Positions 1 to 8,753 of a DNA stretch of 20,000 nucleotides are shown here, in pieces (positions within the stretch are counted from its first letter, which is position 1; the number at the start of each line of letters is the position of its first letter). This DNA comes from an uncultured virus (IMG/VR IMGVR_UViG_3300025316_000017) (lineage: Duplodnaviria; Heunggongvirae; Uroviricota; Caudoviricetes). The position numbers and the translations under genes were made by a program. The notes under the pieces were generated by a model. It made no database searches. It was not told where the DNA came from and saw nothing but the letters and a program-made list of their open reading frames with translations. The stretch lies in IMG/VR virus record IMGVR_UViG_3300025316_000017. One strand, 5' to 3'.

Positions 1-319
1 TTCCAACTACGGGTTTACCATTAGTAAATACAGGTTTTACTAGATCAAAAGGAAATTCAGCAAAATATTGTGCACGAGGGCAATGAACCCACTGTATAGA
101 CCTGTTTAAACTGTTTAAAAAATGGTTTTGACCATCCAAAGTTTCAAAAATATGAATTGGATCAACCGCAATGCCAATAGTTTCAAAAAATTCTTTAGCA
201 CCCTGCAAATGCGTTACGGCTGCATATTTATAAGGTTTATCCTTTCGGTTAGCATCGATAAATGGTAAGCATTGCAAAAAATCGCCAATTCCGCCCATCA
301 GTAAAATTATTTGCTCCAT
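1..319 (-). CDS. Glycosyltransferase, GT9/heptosyltransferase-like N-terminus (partial, runs off the left edge)
   Basis: Hand translation from ATG at 319 is open to position 1: MEQIILLMGGIGDFLQCLPFIDANRKDKPYKYAAVTHLQGAKEFF... GGIGDxxxxxP after a hydrophobic strand is the typical GT9 (GT-B) N-terminal motif. Overlaps the end of the TPR-GT gene by 13 nt. Not in the ORF track. Confidence 0.7.
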   Translation of the reverse strand, partial: MEQIILLMGGIGDFLQCLPFIDANRKDKPYKYAAVTHLQGAKEFFETIGIAVDPIHIFETLDGQNHFLNSLNRSIQWVHCPRAQYFAEFPFDLVKPVFTNGKPVVG

Positions 320-1920
320 TCAATTAAGTCCTTTTTAATGTTTTGAACTACAGATTCCCAGTCGCCTAATTTTGGCTGTCGGTAAAGTTTAATTGTTGGA
401 TACCAAGGGCTATCGGTTCTATTCATAAACCAGCGCCAGCAGGTATCAAATCGGTTCATCATCCACACTTCCTTGCCCATAGCCGCCGCTAAGTGAGCCG
501 TAGACGTGTCAACGGCAATTACTAGGTCTAGGCTCCAGATATAAGCTGCGGTGTCTGCAAAGTCCTTAAAATGGGCTGTATGGTTGATCATATCTTTCCA
601 CCCCAAACAATTGTCAAGTTCTTGCTCTGGTTCTTTGCCTTTTTGTAAAGAATAGAAGTTAACATTGTCAAGTTTTAGCGGAAGTAAACGTTCTAAAGAT
701 ATATTTCTGCGTTCATTAACAGCCCAAACCTCAGGCTGATCAGGTCTAAAACCACCAGACCATACCAATCCAACATTCTTTTTACCATTTTTCAAGATTT
801 TTCTTGAAAATTCTTGAACCAATTCAGGATCAGGTTTTAAATAAATGCCATACGGAATGTTATCCATACGAGTTTTAAACGCATAAGGAAGGCTCATAAG
901 GGGAATATGGAGATCAAAAGGCGGAATAGCTTCGCCAGTAGTTACAATTTGATCTATTCCGTCAAGCGTAGTTAGCAGTTTAACCAAAGGTTTTTCTGTG
1001 CCAAGAATCACTTTAGCTCCATTTTCTTTAGCTAATTTGGCATAGCGACAAAATTGAATCATATCCCCAAGACCCTGTTCACCATGAATAAACAGAGTCT
1101 TTCCATTTAAATCTTGGGAACCATCGTAGCAAATACCGGGTAAATCACGCCTTGGATAGGTTTTTCTATTCCAACGCCATTCATGTTCATCCCACGCAGT
1201 GTCATATTCGCCACGCAAAAGTAAGCATAAAGACCGATTAAAACGAGCATCAGCAAGTTTTGGATCAATTTCTACCGCTCGGTTATAGTCTTCCAAAGCT
1301 TCGTCTGGTCTTCCTAAGTTTTGATAAACCAAACCACGATTATTGTAAAAAGCCTCCACTCCTTTGGGTTTTAACTTGATTCCAGCTTCATAATTTGCTA
1401 AAGTTTCTTCCATGCGATGCAATTTTTGCAGGGCTATCCCTTTGTTGTTATAAGCCTCTGGGAAGTTTGGTTTGTATTTAAGGGCTAAATCATAAAGCGC
1501 AATTTCTTCTTCAGTTCTATGAAGACTACCGACTACAATCCCTTTGTTGTAATAGGCTTCAGCATAATTTGGCATTAATTTTATGGCACTGTCAAAGTCC
1601 ATAATAGCCAATTCTGGCTGTTTTAAAGCTTGAAATACATTAGCTCGGTTATTTAAAGCTATGGGATTATGCGGGTGTCTTTCTATGGAAAGATTAAAGA
1701 AATTTAATGCCGCCAAATAATTCTGAACACTACCTAAAATGCACCCAATTAAATGATAAGCATCAGGATGATCTGGGTTTTGAGCAATAATTTGATCACA
1801 TAATATGATTGCTTTTTGATTGTCTCCGTTGGCATGGCTTTGTTGAGCTTGAACAAGTCTAGCCACATTTTGGTCGGATAATGGTTTTAATTTTATCTTG
1901 GGAACGTTCTTCTTTTTCAT
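307..1920 (-). CDS. TPR-repeat protein fused to a GT9-like glycosyltransferase domain
   Basis: 537 aa. About 6-7 TPRs in the first ~250 aa (e.g. PNYAEAYYNKG, PNFPEAYNNKG, AFYNNRGLVY). C-terminal domain has HGEQGLGDMIQFCRY, GLVWSG and DFADTAAYIWSLDLVIAVDTSTAHLAAAMGK. Confidence 0.9.
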   Translation of the reverse strand: MKKKNVPKIKLKPLSDQNVARLVQAQQSHANGDNQKAIILCDQIIAQNPDHPDAYHLIGCILGSVQNYLAALNFFNLSIERHPHNPIALNNRANVFQALKQPELAIMDFDSAIKLMPNYAEAYYNKGIVVGSLHRTEEEIALYDLALKYKPNFPEAYNNKGIALQKLHRMEETLANYEAGIKLKPKGVEAFYNNRGLVYQNLGRPDEALEDYNRAVEIDPKLADARFNRSLCLLLRGEYDTAWDEHEWRWNRKTYPRRDLPGICYDGSQDLNGKTLFIHGEQGLGDMIQFCRYAKLAKENGAKVILGTEKPLVKLLTTLDGIDQIVTTGEAIPPFDLHIPLMSLPYAFKTRMDNIPYGIYLKPDPELVQEFSRKILKNGKKNVGLVWSGGFRPDQPEVWAVNERRNISLERLLPLKLDNVNFYSLQKGKEPEQELDNCLGWKDMINHTAHFKDFADTAAYIWSLDLVIAVDTSTAHLAAAMGKEVWMMNRFDTCWRWFMNRTDSPWYPTIKLYRQPKLGDWESVVQNIKKDLIEWSK

Positions 1921-1954: not shown

Positions 1955-1984
1955 CAAGTTTAAACTTGCAAGATGTTTAAACTT
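1955..1984. promoter_or_regulatory. Tandem palindromic operator-like sites (GTTTAAAC x2)
   Basis: Perfect 14-bp palindrome CAAGTTTAAACTTG at 1955-1968. GTTTAAACTT is directly repeated at 1958-1967 and 1975-1984, flanking the rightward -35. Confidence 0.45.
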
Positions 1985-2001: not shown

Positions 2002-2076
2002 ATCTGGGAGATTGCTTAAACCACCACTGCCCCAGCAGACGATGCAACGATCGGTTTAAGCCTTTTGCATAAGGAG
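2002..2076 (+). ncRNA. Candidate cis-regulatory structured leader RNA with interlocking pseudoknot helices
   Basis: Three helices: CTGGG 2004-2008 / CCCAG 2031-2035; GCTTAAACC 2014-2022 / GGTTTAAGC 2053-2061; ATGCAA 2042-2047 / TTGCAT 2065-2070. SD AAGGAG follows immediately at 2071-2076. Confidence 0.6.
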
Positions 2077-2082
2077 TCCATT

Positions 2083-2796
2083 ATGGGACGTAGTACATTT
2101 GAAGGTCCGATTCTGTCGGGTGATAATCGTTTTGGTCAACAACGTGACGTTGGTCCAGTTCTTTTAACTCAATACGCATTTTTAGATTTTTCTAAAACCA
2201 CTCCCGGCACCGCTGGTTATGCTGGTTCTTCAGGCGTGTTTGTTTCTCCAAATAACATTCCTAACAATACAGGTACTATTTGGACACCACAAGCTGGCTC
2301 ATATAGCGCAAATGGTCCTACTGTAGCAACTGCCCCTACCGCTGATGCCGCTGGTACTATTTACCGTGGTGTTGTAATGTTATTGCCACAGGCTTCTTAT
2401 TTAAAATCTGTAGAACTTGACTATATTGTTCAACCAACTGACGGTACAAATGCCGCTACAGTAACTTCTGTATTTATTTCTAATCAATTTGTAACTTCTT
2501 CTACTGGCGCTGTATATGGTAGCCTTGCCGCTAACACAACTACAGCAGTTGGTCGTACCTCTGCTACTTTTACAGCAACTCAATACGCAAACTGCCAATC
2601 TACTTTGCAAGATGTTCAAAACATCCAACCGGGTCAACAGCCAACTTGGTTTAGCCAAGTAGTATTTACCATTCAAATGCTTGGTTCAACTATGAATGCC
2701 CCTACGTCTGGCAAACTTGGAATTACTTTAAGTTATGTTCAATCAGATCCTAATATTGGTAATAGTTCAACATATCCATACGGTAACTTTGACTAA
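2083..2796 (+). CDS. Probable virion (capsid-associated/decoration-like) protein
   Basis: ATG 2083 with SD AAGGAG is preferred over the track's TTG at 2065; 237 aa. N-terminus MGRSTFEGPILSG resembles the M-x-x-T-F-x-G-P starts of phage head-associated proteins. T/A/S/G-rich and beta-like. Function is inferred. Confidence 0.55.
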   Translation: MGRSTFEGPILSGDNRFGQQRDVGPVLLTQYAFLDFSKTTPGTAGYAGSSGVFVSPNNIPNNTGTIWTPQAGSYSANGPTVATAPTADAAGTIYRGVVMLLPQASYLKSVELDYIVQPTDGTNAATVTSVFISNQFVTSSTGAVYGSLAANTTTAVGRTSATFTATQYANCQSTLQDVQNIQPGQQPTWFSQVVFTIQMLGSTMNAPTSGKLGITLSYVQSDPNIGNSSTYPYGNFD

Positions 2797-5376: not shown

Positions 5377-5622
5377 ATGGCTAAGACTCCAGCTTGGCAA
5401 CGCAAGGAGGGGAAGTCTCCCTCCGGCGGTTTAAACGCCAAAGGTAGAGCGTCTGCAAAAAAAGAAGGCATGAATCTAAAAGCACCCCAACCAGAAGGCG
5501 GATCACGCAAAAAGTCGTTCTGCGCCCGCATGGAAGGGATGAAAAAGAAACTAACTTCTTCTAAAACAGCCAGCGATCCTGATAGCAGAATTAATAAATC
5601 TTTAAAGAAGTGGAAATGCTGA
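5377..5622 (+). CDS. Small basic phage protein (DUF6321-like)
   Basis: 81 aa: AWQRKEGKSPSGGLNAKGRAS...RKKSFCARM...DPDSRINKSLKKWKC. Family recognised from memory. Confidence 0.65.
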   Translation: MAKTPAWQRKEGKSPSGGLNAKGRASAKKEGMNLKAPQPEGGSRKKSFCARMEGMKKKLTSSKTASDPDSRINKSLKKWKC

Positions 5623-5864
5623 TGGATGGATTAATGCAATTTTGGAACGCTGCTTTAACGCTATTTGTTGCGGCTATTGGATACTTTGTTAAAGAAAAGT
5701 TTAATGACTTGGATCGTACTAAAGTTCTTTTAAATAAAACACGTGAAGAAATGGCTCGTGATTATATTACTAAGACGGAAGTACGTAGCGACATGGAACA
5801 AATTATTTCAAGATTTGATAAGCTAGAAGCTAAACTGGATCGTTTTATTGAAGGACATAAATAA
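5622..5864 (+). CDS. Small protein with N-terminal transmembrane helix and coiled coil
   Basis: ATG 5622 in a TGATG overlap with the upstream stop; 80 aa. Hydrophobic FWNAALTLFVAAIGYFV then heptads (RFDKLEAKLDRF). Confidence 0.7.
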   Translation: MDGLMQFWNAALTLFVAAIGYFVKEKFNDLDRTKVLLNKTREEMARDYITKTEVRSDMEQIISRFDKLEAKLDRFIEGHK

Positions 5865-6319
5865 TGCCAAGCACTAGCAAAAAACAACATAATTTAATGG
5901 AAGCGGTTGCTCATAATCCGAGCTTCGCTAAAAAAGTAGGTATCCCTCGCTCTGTTGGCGAGGATTTTAGTAAAGCCGACAAGGGCAAAACTTTTAAAAA
6001 GGGTGGAGAAATGAAAAAGAAAATGGCAAGCGGTGGCGAGACTATGGGTCCTCGTTCCATGAAGGAAGACGTAGAAGCTGGTTCTAACAAACATGGCAAA
6101 TTTGGCGAAAGCAAGCTTCAGAAAAAAGGTCACACCAAAGGTAAAAATTTAGGTGATACTGGTAAAAAAGAGCCAATTGAATCTGAAAAAAATATGCCTT
6201 CATTTATGAAAGAAATGAAAAAAGGCGGCAAAGTTAAGAAGATGGCTGCTGGCGGCACTGCTTCTAGCCGTGCTGATGGTATTGCACAACGTGGTAAAAC
6301 AGTTGGTAAATATTGCTAA
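5864..6319 (+). CDS. Lys-rich small protein with four hydrophobic-x-x-GG motifs
   Basis: 151 aa, TAATG-coupled start. Contains FKKGG, MASGG, MKKGG, MAAGG and C-terminal RADGIAQRGKTVGKYC. Confidence 0.8.
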   Translation: MPSTSKKQHNLMEAVAHNPSFAKKVGIPRSVGEDFSKADKGKTFKKGGEMKKKMASGGETMGPRSMKEDVEAGSNKHGKFGESKLQKKGHTKGKNLGDTGKKEPIESEKNMPSFMKEMKKGGKVKKMAAGGTASSRADGIAQRGKTVGKYC

Positions 6320-6328
6320 GGATAAATT

Positions 6329-6532
6329 ATGAAAAATGATCACCCACCAATCTCTATGGATATGGCTGCTGAAGAGCATATGATCCACCCAGAGCATATT
6401 GAAAAGCATCATGGCGGAGACGGACACGTACAACACCACGAGCATTTTAAGAAACACGCCGCTGGTCACAAACTGCACCATGAACACGTTAAAGCAATGT
6501 GTGGTGGCGGTTATGCTAAGGGCAAAAAGTAA
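6329..6532 (+). CDS. His-rich mini-protein (15 His in 67 aa)
   Basis: SD AAGGA, stop coupled to the next gene by TAATG. Three HxxH(H/P)EH repeats; ends MCGGGYAKGKK. Confidence 0.75.
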   Translation: MKNDHPPISMDMAAEEHMIHPEHIEKHHGGDGHVQHHEHFKKHAAGHKLHHEHVKAMCGGGYAKGKK

Positions 6533-6792
6533 TGATGGCAAGTCGTGGAATGGGTGATATTAACCCTTCCAAAATGCCTAGCAAAAAGGTCATTCAACGA
6601 AAGGATGATCCAAATGCTGTTGATATGTATGCAAAAGGTGGTGAAGTTTGGGATAAACCACGTCCAAAAAAATTAGGTAAACCCAAAAAAATGTCCGCAA
6701 GTAAAAAAGCTAGCGCTAAAGCAATGGCTAAAGCGGCGGGTAGACCATATCCTAATTTGGTTGACAATATGAGAGCCGCAAAAGGCAAATAA
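6532..6792 (+). CDS. Small basic protein with a YAKGG motif
   Basis: 86 aa, TAATG coupling at both ends, Lys/Ala-rich. Confidence 0.75.
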   Translation: MMASRGMGDINPSKMPSKKVIQRKDDPNAVDMYAKGGEVWDKPRPKKLGKPKKMSASKKASAKAMAKAAGRPYPNLVDNMRAAKGK

Positions 6793-7724
6793 TGGCGTAT
6801 ACCAGTGGCAGTTCTACTTTTAACCTTGACCTCACTGAGCTTGTAGAAGAAGCCTTTGAGCGTTGTGGCTCGCAGTTACGTACTGGATATGACCTTAGGA
6901 CTGCCAAGCGGTCAATAAACCTATTGACCATTGAATGGGCTAATAGGGGCATTAACCTTTGGACGGTGGAAGAGGTATCCGTTCCGTTGGTATATGGTCA
7001 AGCTATATACCCAGTAGATGCTAATACAATTGATATTTTAGATTTGGTCACACGCACCAATAATGCTAGTTCTAGCAACCAACAAGATATTAATTTAAAC
7101 CGTATTTCAGAATCTACGTATTCGACTATTCCGAATAAATTGACCTATGGTCGCCCAATTCAGACTTATTACAGCCGTGAAACAGGCAATTCAAACGTTT
7201 ATTCTGGAGTTACTTTAGCCGCCACTCTTACAGCTTCTGCTACAGCTATTACCCTCAGCTCTACAGCCAATATGCGATCTACTGGATTTATCCAAATAGA
7301 TAACGAAATCATTGGTTACGTCAATATATCTGGTAATCAGCTTTTAAATTGCTACCGTGGGCAATACAATACTACTGCTGCGGCTCATAGCATTGGAGCG
7401 CAAATTTATAACCAACAACTACCGTTTTTGGCTGTTTGGCCCACACCAGACAATTCAACCCCATATACGATGGTTTATTGGCGTATGAGACGTATTCAAG
7501 ATTCTGGAACAGGTGTATTTATTCAAGATATTCCATTCCGTTGGATTACTTGTATGGTAGCTGGATTAGCTTATTATTTGTCCATGAAATTACCAAACAT
7601 GGATATTCAACGTGCTGCTGGTCTTAAAGCGGAGTACATGGAACAGCTTGAACAGGCTTGTGAAGAAGATCGGGAAATGGTATCAATTCGTTTTGTTCCT
7701 CGTAATATGTTTTATTCGAGGTAA
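6792..7724 (+). CDS. Head-tail adaptor-like protein (P22 gp4/tail tubular A-like) with an inserted beta module
   Basis: 310 aa. Helical N-terminus LVEEAFERCG...AKRSINLLTIEWANRGINLW, then GRP..Y, WPTPD and C-terminal GLAYYLSMK. Insert TLAATL...IQIDNEII...RGQYNTTAAAH at about 7185-7420. Confidence 0.65.
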   Translation: MAYTSGSSTFNLDLTELVEEAFERCGSQLRTGYDLRTAKRSINLLTIEWANRGINLWTVEEVSVPLVYGQAIYPVDANTIDILDLVTRTNNASSSNQQDINLNRISESTYSTIPNKLTYGRPIQTYYSRETGNSNVYSGVTLAATLTASATAITLSSTANMRSTGFIQIDNEIIGYVNISGNQLLNCYRGQYNTTAAAHSIGAQIYNQQLPFLAVWPTPDNSTPYTMVYWRMRRIQDSGTGVFIQDIPFRWITCMVAGLAYYLSMKLPNMDIQRAAGLKAEYMEQLEQACEEDREMVSIRFVPRNMFYSR

Positions 7725-7726
7725 AA

Positions 7727-8155
7727 ATGCCAACTAAGTATGCAAGTGGCAAACACAGTATTGCGGAATGTGATAGATGTGGTCAAAGATATAAGCTGCA
7801 TGAATTAAAAAAGCTAACCATCAAGACCAAGTTGGTAAGTATTAAGGTTTGCCCTGAGTGTTGGGATCCAGATCATCCCCAGTTAAGACTGGGTATGTAT
7901 CCAGTGAATGATCCACAGGCTGTTATTGAACCAAGACCAGATATTAGTTACTATGCTTCTGGTCCAAGTGGTTTGCAGATTAATCAGGGAGGCGGTACTT
8001 CCCAAAGCCAAGCTGGTTTTCCAGAGGGCGGTAGTAGGGTAATTCAGTGGGGATGGTATCCAGTGGGTGGATCTAGCGGTACGGATAGAGGTTTAACACC
8101 AAACTATCTAGTAGGAAATGGCAATATTAATTCAGTAACAATTACGACAACGTAG
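7727..8155 (+). CDS. Zn-ribbon (CxxC-x23-CxxC) hypothetical protein
   Basis: 142 aa with CDRC (aa 15-18) and CPEC (aa 42-45), followed by WDPDHPQL. Confidence 0.75.
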   Translation: MPTKYASGKHSIAECDRCGQRYKLHELKKLTIKTKLVSIKVCPECWDPDHPQLRLGMYPVNDPQAVIEPRPDISYYASGPSGLQINQGGGTSQSQAGFPEGGSRVIQWGWYPVGGSSGTDRGLTPNYLVGNGNINSVTITTT

Positions 8156-8164
8156 GAGTAAAAA

Positions 8165-8437
8165 ATGGCAAAGATGGAAAAAGAATCAAAAGCAGAAATG
8201 CGCAAAGAAGAAAAAGCTGACAAAAAGCAAGATGTAGCTATGATCAAAAAAGCTTTTAAAGAACACGATGCCCAAGAACACAAAGGTGGCAAAGGCACAA
8301 AAATTGTTCTTAAAAAAGGCGGAATGGACAATGTTAAAAAAATGGCTAAGGGTGGTGTAACCCAGTCTAACCTACGCAGCATGGGTCGTAATATGGCTCG
8401 TGTAGCTAATCAGAAGTCTTCTTCAAGAGGTCGTTAA
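8165..8437 (+). CDS. Highly charged small protein with LKKGG and MAKGG motifs
   Basis: 90 aa, SD AGGAG, K/E-rich N-terminus, ends SSSRGR. Confidence 0.8.
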   Translation: MAKMEKESKAEMRKEEKADKKQDVAMIKKAFKEHDAQEHKGGKGTKIVLKKGGMDNVKKMAKGGVTQSNLRSMGRNMARVANQKSSSRGR

Positions 8438-8438
8438 T

Positions 8439-8753
8439 ATGGCAATCGCAAAGAATGTAAAACCAACCAAGAAAAATAGCCCCGCTATTAAGACTGGTAA
8501 GGCTCCTTATGACAAACCTGCAAGTGATTATGCTCGTCCACATACTATGGATGGCAAAATAATTAATGGCAATGAAGTTATGGAAATGGGCGATTTTGCA
8601 ACTGAAAAGTCTGCCAAAGAAGCTAACATTAAAGATCCATTGCCAGCAAGCGCTGTAGGATGGGGTAAAGGCACAACGAAGGAAGATGGTCAAGAAACTC
8701 GTGGAAATGGCGCTGCTACTAAGGGTCGTATTGCTCGTGGACCAATGGCGTAA
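8439..8753 (+). CDS. Small basic hypothetical protein with C-terminal RGNGAATKG motif
   Basis: 104 aa, starts 1 nt after the upstream stop. Confidence 0.75.
   Translation: MAIAKNVKPTKKNSPAIKTGKAPYDKPASDYARPHTMDGKIINGNEVMEMGDFATEKSAKEANIKDPLPASAVGWGKGTTKEDGQETRGNGAATKGRIARGPMA

Follow-up and report, generated by a model that had tools for sequence, protein, structure and literature searches.

The roughly 80 bases in front of a putative capsid cement gene in the window (the whole 20,000-nucleotide stretch of the uncultured virus IMGVR_UViG_3300025316_000017 that was analysed) are a real, doubly knotted RNA, which is widespread and uncatalogued. This leader is a more elaborate relative of the orphan motif Mu-gpT-DE (RF03012 in Rfam), and we give an even chance to the reading that it is a protein-responsive translational operator of the cement transcript. 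The features of the region are the following.

307..1920, minus strand: TPR / glycosyltransferase-9-like gene in the reverse-strand cassette that separates the capsid gene from the leader promoter
1958-1965 and 1975-1982, no strand: two 8-bp palindromes, GTTTAAAC, which flank the -35 box and lie outside the RNA
1966..1971, plus strand: predicted -35 box, TTGCAA
1989..1994, plus strand: predicted -10 box, TATAAA, 17 nt past the -35 box, with a predicted +1 near 2002
2002..2076, plus strand: whole structured leader RNA, the sole match in the window of covariance model R1 (79.6 bits, with the window within the R1 training set)
2004-2008 with 2031-2035, plus strand: P1, pseudoknot of the 5' tail with loop L4
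2014-2022 with 2053-2061, plus strand: P2, main stem, which closes the three-way junction
2026..2050, plus strand: junction core of three GAC-type units, with unpaired A2026, A2039 and A2050 and closing pairs C2027-G2038 and C2040-G2049
2027-2029 with 2036-2038, plus strand: P4, hairpin of 3 bp, whose 6-nt loop L4 bears the P1 3' strand
2040-2041 with 2048-2049, plus strand: P5, hairpin of 2 bp with the 6-nt loop L5
2042-2047 with 2065-2070, plus strand: P3, kissing interaction of loop L5 with the loop of P6
2062-2064 with 2071-2073, plus strand: P6, 3-bp helix that occupies the first three bases of the Shine-Dalgarno (SD)
2071..2076, plus strand: SD sequence AAGGAG
2083..2796, plus strand: putative jelly-roll capsid cement/decoration gene, 237 aa
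2806..2823, plus strand: GC-rich hairpin past the cement gene, a candidate leaky terminator or 3' stabiliser

In the folded leader P2, P4 and P5 meet in a three-way junction, each strand of which has a single conserved A. Of the two loops, L4 is paired to the 5' tail and L5 to the 3' tail, most commonly at 20-23 nt from the respective junction A. P1, P2 and P3 are perfect Watson-Crick helices at the coordinates that an earlier note, made from the letters only, had assigned to them, and they cross as described there (order P1, P2, P1', P3, P2', P3'). The SD and the ATG at 2083 also lie where that note placed them, and the GC content of the leader is 0.49 (2002-2078), compared to 0.33 at 1501-2000 and 0.42 at 2001-2500. 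The two pairings that had been regarded as competitors of this fold turned out to be mainly parts of it: CTGC/GCAG is in essence the 3-bp P4, of which the fourth pair alone competes with P1, and the supposed anti-SD hairpin CCTT/AAGG is in essence the 3-bp P6, which is compatible with P3 because the loop of P6 is the P3 3' strand. The 2-bp P5 is an extra helix that had gone unnoticed. We rejected a conserved 4-bp anti-SD hairpin competing with P2, as its outer pair is formed in just 26 of 98 aligned leaders, and likewise an alternative minimum free energy (MFE) register (2041-2043 with 2050-2052), which judged by eye suits the freshwater leaders but not several marine ones. Just one of 20,000 dinucleotide-shuffled versions of the 81-nt leader produced a chained set of helices of at least 5, 9 and 5 bp, with outer helices summing to at least 11 bp; a 9-bp helix was present in 96 versions, and the nested MFE of the leader is unremarkable (z -1.45). 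The linker from P2 to P3 measures 3-6 nt in 157 of 168 leaders and is so short that all helices may not form simultaneously.

The fold was evaluated on homologous leaders, of which a parser accepted 301 out of 360 usable ones, 168 of them distinct. A structure-blind MAFFT alignment was made of the 98 distinct leaders that are less than 93% alike, rows that had been pre-selected for P1-P3. In this alignment 88.4% of the cells were paired, against 34-42% in slid controls, 20 of the 24 pairs varied on both sides and the covariation score was reached by none of 500 shuffles. P1 was paired in 95.9% of its cells, with four of five pairs varying on both sides, P3 in 80.1%, and all eight tested pairs of P2 varied on both sides; P2 displays 88 distinct 7-bp cores across the 168 leaders. 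Helix sequences are fully replaced across leaders, with retention of the junction AC/GAC/GA. The P2 cells hold 27 G-U against four A-C combinations, an excess that points to an RNA of the plus strand.

Covariation of P1-P3 in homologous leaders had been put forward in the earlier note as a check. In a tree-aware G-test with permuted substitutions, run on a model-fitted alignment of 100 rows, P2 passed (six pairs at E<0.05 and two further pairs at E 0.15), whereas P1 and P3 were not significant: the best P1 pair had E=0.15, and P3 had none within the top 30. One P5 pair reached 0.32 and one P4 pair 0.35. The weak signal of P1 and P3 is partly due to variable linkers, which misalign the tails, and for these two helices the alignment-free evidence is stronger than the tree-aware test. 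Nine P1 and 15 P3 loop types each find a complement of 5-7 bp in the tail of the same leader (single probabilities 0.0015-0.11; the types are not independent). Cognate tails pair over at least 5 bp in 20/20 and 19/19 cases, which holds by selection, compared to 74/380 and 64/342 for non-cognate tails, counts that make an imperfect control since they are inflated by near-identical loops. Just two loci with the core and P2 were without P3.

In sequence, just about six positions are invariant. A2026, C2027, G2038, A2039 and A2050 are invariant in all 98 rows, although the parser required or favoured the invariant junction bases and a variant in seven loci departs from them. The middle pair of P4 is UA in 76, GC in 15, AU in five and CG in two of the 98 rows and is never unpaired; the outer pair of P5 is formed in all 98 and the inner one in 64, the remainder being mostly G-A. 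In the variant (loci L033, L034, L042, L054-L056 and L058) P4 reads CCC/GGG or CCG/CGG and the second GAC is missing, UCA replaces the single A of the second junction strand, and in some of these loci the C-G of P5 has become U-A.

Loci for the estimate of spread were picked by protein and not by RNA pattern, and six loci that were too short were dropped. The full fold was identified in 72 of the 78 close relatives for which upstream DNA was available (65 through the parser and seven by eye), in 39 of 78 DSL-LC04-type loci (37 and two, respectively), in all 78 HTVC023P-type loci and in four of nine cultured-phage records. The fold recurs with changed sequence in lake phages, in the pelagiphages HTVC023P and HTVC027P and in DSL-LC04. 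In the remaining six close relatives a GIY-YIG gene stands where the leader would be, and no copy of the RNA was found elsewhere on any of the five contigs searched, each just 9-34% complete, which suggests that the RNA is dispensable. A pattern scan gave at least 120 matches, and a cement-type start follows in 118 of the 118 readable ones among those listed, two others ending at a contig edge. R1 found a single strong copy in four of four complete IMG/VR genomes and in two of two complete cultured genomes. When 185,579 prokaryote genomes were scanned with a pattern that covers the freshwater type only, five matches appeared, of which four lack the fold and the context and one is a phage contig within a metagenome-assembled genome (MAG). 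In the latter (locus L372), a Nanopelagicaceae MAG contig carries the capsid gene, the leader and the cement gene; it is probably a binned phage contig and no evidence of the host.

Searches of the GenBank phages with the leader and the cement gene (blastn and tblastn) gave nothing relevant, and the cultured relatives were reached via the capsid protein. The RNA is undescribed in the literature that was covered, which includes six supplement files of Fremin 2023 with zero matches (PMC10690425, in part); the supplement of Weinberg 2017 and three supplement files of Fremin 2023 lie outside this coverage and may hold it.

The Rfam search that the earlier note had called for gave zero matches at gathering scores across the window, and at E<=10 two noise matches only near the leader (1900-2200). 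The leader has no Rfam riboswitch or ribozyme match, and the earlier note had likewise matched it to no such class, but it shares its slot and apparently its junction core with RF03012 and is, because of this, less isolated than that note supposed. The gathering score of RF03012, 49 bits, is not reached by the leader of the window, whereas the corresponding slot of CRP-901/902 (loci L206/L207) scored 72.3 bits and five more loci 60.6-71.9 bits as positive controls. RF03012 had zero matches in the full-form loci and, at E<=10, zero at 1900-2200 of the window, and R1 had zero matches at E<=1 in the Mu-gpT-DE loci. As neither covariance model finds the other form, the leader should be regarded as a relative of Mu-gpT-DE and not as a member.

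The Mu-gpT-DE motif reportedly stems from Weinberg et al. 2017. The string "gpT" is absent from the main text of that paper as far as it was accessible (PMC5737381), and Mu-gpT-DE is named in PMC7657543, including supplement rows. The position of the two RNAs is the same. RF03012 lies downstream of a Mu-like gpT capsid gene and extends into the SD and AUG of the next gene, which also holds for the leader: like Mu-gpT-DE it follows a Mu-gpT-like capsid gene and a terminator, sits behind a promoter and ends at the SD of the cement gene, and the capsid gene is directly upstream in many loci. The structures differ in complexity. In the Rfam model Mu-gpT-DE has 53 nt and two nested helices, compared to about 75 nt, six helices and two loop-tail pseudoknots for the leader, and the outer helix of Mu-gpT-DE pairs the 5' end directly with the SD, whereas in the leader the 5' end pairs with L4 and the SD is taken by P6/P3. 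Members of Mu-gpT-DE lend themselves to a drawing in which three GAC units form a three-way junction, which is our reading and not the Rfam annotation. The marine full forms have three GAC; the window has CAC, GAC and GAU, with the As and the closing pairs retained.

Simpler leaders occupy the same slot within one cement family, where 24 of 78 loci have a three-GAC and 13 a two-GAC leader. Mapped on a tree of 67 distinct cement proteins, all from one family, the full form requires 10 changes, the three-GAC form 8 and the two-GAC form 6; well-supported branches force at least six, five and five of them, respectively. This interleaving shows that the leader forms are exchanged or interconvert in one slot. 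Two loci, L258 and L265, look intermediate between the full form and Mu-gpT-DE in that they have the 5' knot and no P3.

The window belongs to a structural region of a tailed phage. The leader sits behind a predicted sigma70-type promoter with a start around 2002; a strict promoter scan of the window did not list the promoter at 1966-1994. Of 97 leaders, 94 have their best -10-like hexamer, sought over 5-13 nt, at 6-9 nt ahead of P1, and 41 have a -35 box that agrees at four or more of six positions. In the relatives the gene order is portal, GroES, scaffold-like protein, major capsid, terminator, promoter, leader, homologue of the 2083-2796 gene, hairpin and packed operon. The statement that the leader precedes the first structural gene was wrong. 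One contig has the same leader together with a cement protein of 100% identity; on it the major capsid gene lies ahead of the leader and ends 3.2 kb upstream across a reverse-strand cassette, which would place the capsid gene of our phage just past the left edge of the window. The capsid protein matches PF10124 (Mu-like gpT) and is 56-65% identical to those of HTVC023P, HTVC027P, DSL-LC04 and CRP-901/902. A hairpin of -8 kcal/mol or lower lies within 45 nt of the cement stop codon in 90 of 92 unique loci of the freshwater set and in 45 of 67 and 27 of 27 other unique loci, and the operon that follows is tightly packed, with gaps of at most 16 nt past 2847. For 13 of the 63 freshwater leaders, the preceding 65 nt hold a 7-mer of the GTTTAAAC motif (0.022 expected per search window), and the palindromes are possibly a DNA operator for a phage or host regulator.

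The name of the downstream gene follows from fold and position. The model of its 237-aa product is a beta-sandwich (pLDDT 83.9), for which VIA has cement proteins (from Pam1, KHP40 and a Bordetella phage) among its top rows, at Z 5.5-6.8 and level with the jelly-roll capsids of RNA viruses. The similarities are middling: Z 6.8, rmsd 8.6 and 129 aligned residues for the Pam1 capsid chain 7eel_H, and Z 6.2, rmsd 4.3 and 118 for the KHP40 cement 7dou_4. Foldseek against PDB gave zero matches at E<=0.001, the protein matched nothing in Pfam or PHROGs, no named family was retrieved from ESM Atlas, Foldseek PDB or BFVD, and sequence searches of PDB, for which the DSL-LC04 cement and the capsid protein served as queries, yielded nothing useful. 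The same slot is annotated as cement or minor capsid protein in DSL-LC04 and Pag-Yong1, and the synteny in the relatives fits a cement gene adjoining the major capsid gene. As the window protein aligns with the DSL-LC04 cement in the first 37 columns alone, and subfamilies align with each other in the N-terminal 18-43 residues alone, we use "cement" as a putative name.

Transcript levels are available for HTVC027P from PMC12753301. There the cement/capsid mRNA ratio at seven time points (probably 1-15 h) is 0.31, 0.31, 0.32, 0.48, 1.23, 0.67 and 0.38 (Table S3), the cement mRNA is 2.4-6.6 fold above that of the upstream gp60, and the next gene reaches 0.19-0.33 of cement, i.e. a drop of about fourfold. 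This pattern fits a separate promoter with a step-down after the cement gene. The early rise of the cement mRNA relative to the capsid mRNA is no proof of regulation, because gp60, which is without such a leader, rises likewise.

The conserved structure touches the SD of the cement gene, and of that gene only, as expected for a protein-binding translational operator. The first SD 4-mer begins 0-3 nt past P3 in 141 of the 167 leaders that have one, and overlaps P3 by 1-3 nt in 23. P6 occurs as CUU/AAG, CUC/GAG and GUG/CAC, forms that indicate a kissing interaction for P3, and its three pairs are formed in 76, 80 and 80 of 94 leaders, although runs of U and of purines raise the slid controls to high values too. 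P6 is absent in the HTVC027P-type subfamily, where P3 itself overlaps the SD, and in the DSL-LC04-type leaders it stops just before the SD. Other architectures in the slot pair with the SD as well, among them the outer stem of Mu-gpT-DE and, judged by eye, a possible 8-bp pairing in Pag-Yong1, 5 bp of which are in the MFE structure. The leader that Pag-Yong1 has in this slot (L203, 3945-4010) is a different, GC-rich one: it contains a long hairpin as well as a stretch of complementarity to the SD region, and it has zero Rfam or R1 matches.

From a list of cis-regulatory options in the earlier note, a conserved cis-acting RNA at the ribosome-binding site is upheld by covariation, fixed position and single copy, and a protein-binding operator is the option that agrees best. 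In such an operator P2 would close the three-way junction of the two short hairpins, L4 would capture the transcript's own 5' end in P1, and L5 would kiss the loop of the weak hairpin that holds the start of the SD (P3 on P6). With the knot closed, the 30S subunit would be hindered. P6 alone amounts to 0.0 kcal/mol, and since the 3' latch is just marginally stable, the balance would depend on a late protein of the phage able to recognise the junction with its three As. The likeliest protein would be unassembled cement, via its conserved N-terminal arm, or the major capsid protein, so that cement output would be matched to capsid supply; P1 may in addition shield the 5' end. The cement protein is not an obvious RNA binder, because it has 8 K+R in 237 aa and cement lies outside the capsid. 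Also at odds with an operator are the six loci that do without the RNA and the seven-locus variant without the second GAC.

Translational autoregulation has precedents in phages, such as T4 gene 32, the MS2 coat protein and the P22 scaffold. The leaders of T4 gene 32, the E. coli alpha operon and rpsO are pseudoknotted translational operators near the ribosome-binding site for products that are needed in stoichiometric amounts, and the leader resembles them in this respect; it differs in topology and in that the regulated gene is a capsid cement. The contact with the SD and the GAC-type core are common to all forms of the leader, which fits better with an operator than with a riboswitch, a ribozyme or an antiterminator.

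The chief alternative, a protein-free structural cap, which we think unlikely though by no means far-fetched, would have the knot bury the 5' end and resist 5'-end-dependent or 5'-to-3' decay, so that the cement mRNA would stay abundant, with P3/P6 setting a constant translation rate. P1 begins some 1-2 nt past the predicted +1, a stable hairpin lies at the 3' side of the gene, and the layout is as described for flaviviral class 1 xrRNAs, which combine a three-way junction, a 5'-end pseudoknot and a second, latching pseudoknot and which also block bacterial RNase J1 (PMC8374639). This likeness holds at the level of secondary structure and is a resemblance only. According to the same source, xrRNAs reside in the 3' UTRs of eukaryotic RNA viruses and have a 15-16-nt ring threaded by the 5' end, whereas the 5' end of the leader pairs over 5-7 bp with a hairpin loop and the leader sits on a bacterial SD. 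The higher mRNA level of cement compared to gp60 and the next gene in HTVC027P could likewise reflect a cap, but this support is weakened as the separate promoter alone explains the level. A knot-dependent function also leaves unexplained why the pseudoknot-free Mu-gpT-DE and two-GAC forms occur in the same slot.

A combined version of cap and operator, which as a whole we hold to be improbable, takes the three-GAC junction that is common with Mu-gpT-DE as a sequence-specific landing site. A capsid structural protein would read the state of assembly there and set the translation of cement, and the pseudo-symmetric double knot of the full form, in which each tail folds back 20-23 nt onto one loop, would shield the 5' end in an xrRNA-like manner. 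If true, the RNA would have a new tertiary fold, and dsDNA phages would possess a feedback device for capsid assembly, spanning the most abundant pelagiphage group and its freshwater kin. For the orphan motif Mu-gpT-DE the findings propose a revised core in the form of the three-GAC junction, capsid cement as its target gene and SD control as a job that can be tested. Carriers of the RNA are in culture, the infection time course of HTVC027P has been published, and an RNA of 75 nt with two pseudoknots around a junction of one A per strand is a compact target for structure determination. The modest reading alone would make the leader one more phage translational operator, with an unusual fold.

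Antitermination of the kind known from put RNA, in which the nascent leader would bind RNA polymerase for read-through of the post-cement hairpin into the 17-kb tail operon, seems very unlikely to us. The RNA is promoter-proximal and precedes a terminator-like hairpin and a packed operon, but it has a single copy with none at the capsid operon, and its conserved contact is the SD. HTVC027P relies on host RNA polymerase, as such a mechanism would have it, yet its expression falls about fourfold past the cement gene (PMC12753301).

The compact double pseudoknot with few invariant unpaired bases has the general look of small ribozymes. That the leader is a new self-cleaving RNA or a processing site, by which the cement mRNA would receive or reshape its 5' end, is nonetheless very doubtful indeed, even though the HEG genes inserted beside the leader in several loci could also speak for it: Rfam gave zero matches, the leader already begins at the predicted promoter, and the simpler forms retain just two GAC units, with about six invariant positions overall. 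A riboswitch for a metabolite or ion, with P3/P6 as expression platform, would make sense of the pseudoknot on the SD and the conserved junction, but hardly seems credible. It is a poor fit because a cement-type gene, and not a variety of genes, follows in all readable matches among those listed and because the invariant positions are so few; moreover, the freshwater-type pattern had zero true instances in the bacterial genomes, and the RNA is interchangeable with a simple hairpin. Finally, a trans-acting or oligomerising, pRNA-like RNA, whose loops would pair with the tails or loops of other molecules, is extremely unlikely in spite of its three-way junction with two interacting loops, its over-represented palindromes (in non-independent strand types) and the Rfam classification of Mu-gpT-DE as sRNA, as there is no terminator from the RNA to the start codon and the fixed SD spacing argues for action in cis.

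The palindromes, of 4 nt, are present in seven of 13 P3 and eight of 11 P1 strand types (15/24, where 12-18% would be expected), types that are not independent. HTVC023P and HTVC027P have two P1/P3 strand sequences in common, in swapped positions.

The gap between the capsid and cement genes looks like an insertion hotspot. In the window, positions 1-1920 (minus strand) hold TPR/glycosyltransferase-like and other genes, a reversed insert that is found in a subset of the freshwater phages. The GIY-YIG gene that replaces the leader (L061, L063, L077, L070, L072 and L079) runs from the promoter slot to the cement SD, and its last codons may form a stem with two-sided changes between two types, as judged by eye. 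In L035, L036, L045, L048, L050 and L055 the leader is intact and other inserted ORFs separate the capsid gene from the promoter, the one in L035 having a weak GIY-YIG match, and a phage without the leader carries an annotated homing endonuclease (L209, 3998-5548). Further downstream, several small ORFs rich in Lys, Met and His, one of them with DUF6321, follow one another between structural genes at 5377-8753 of the window.
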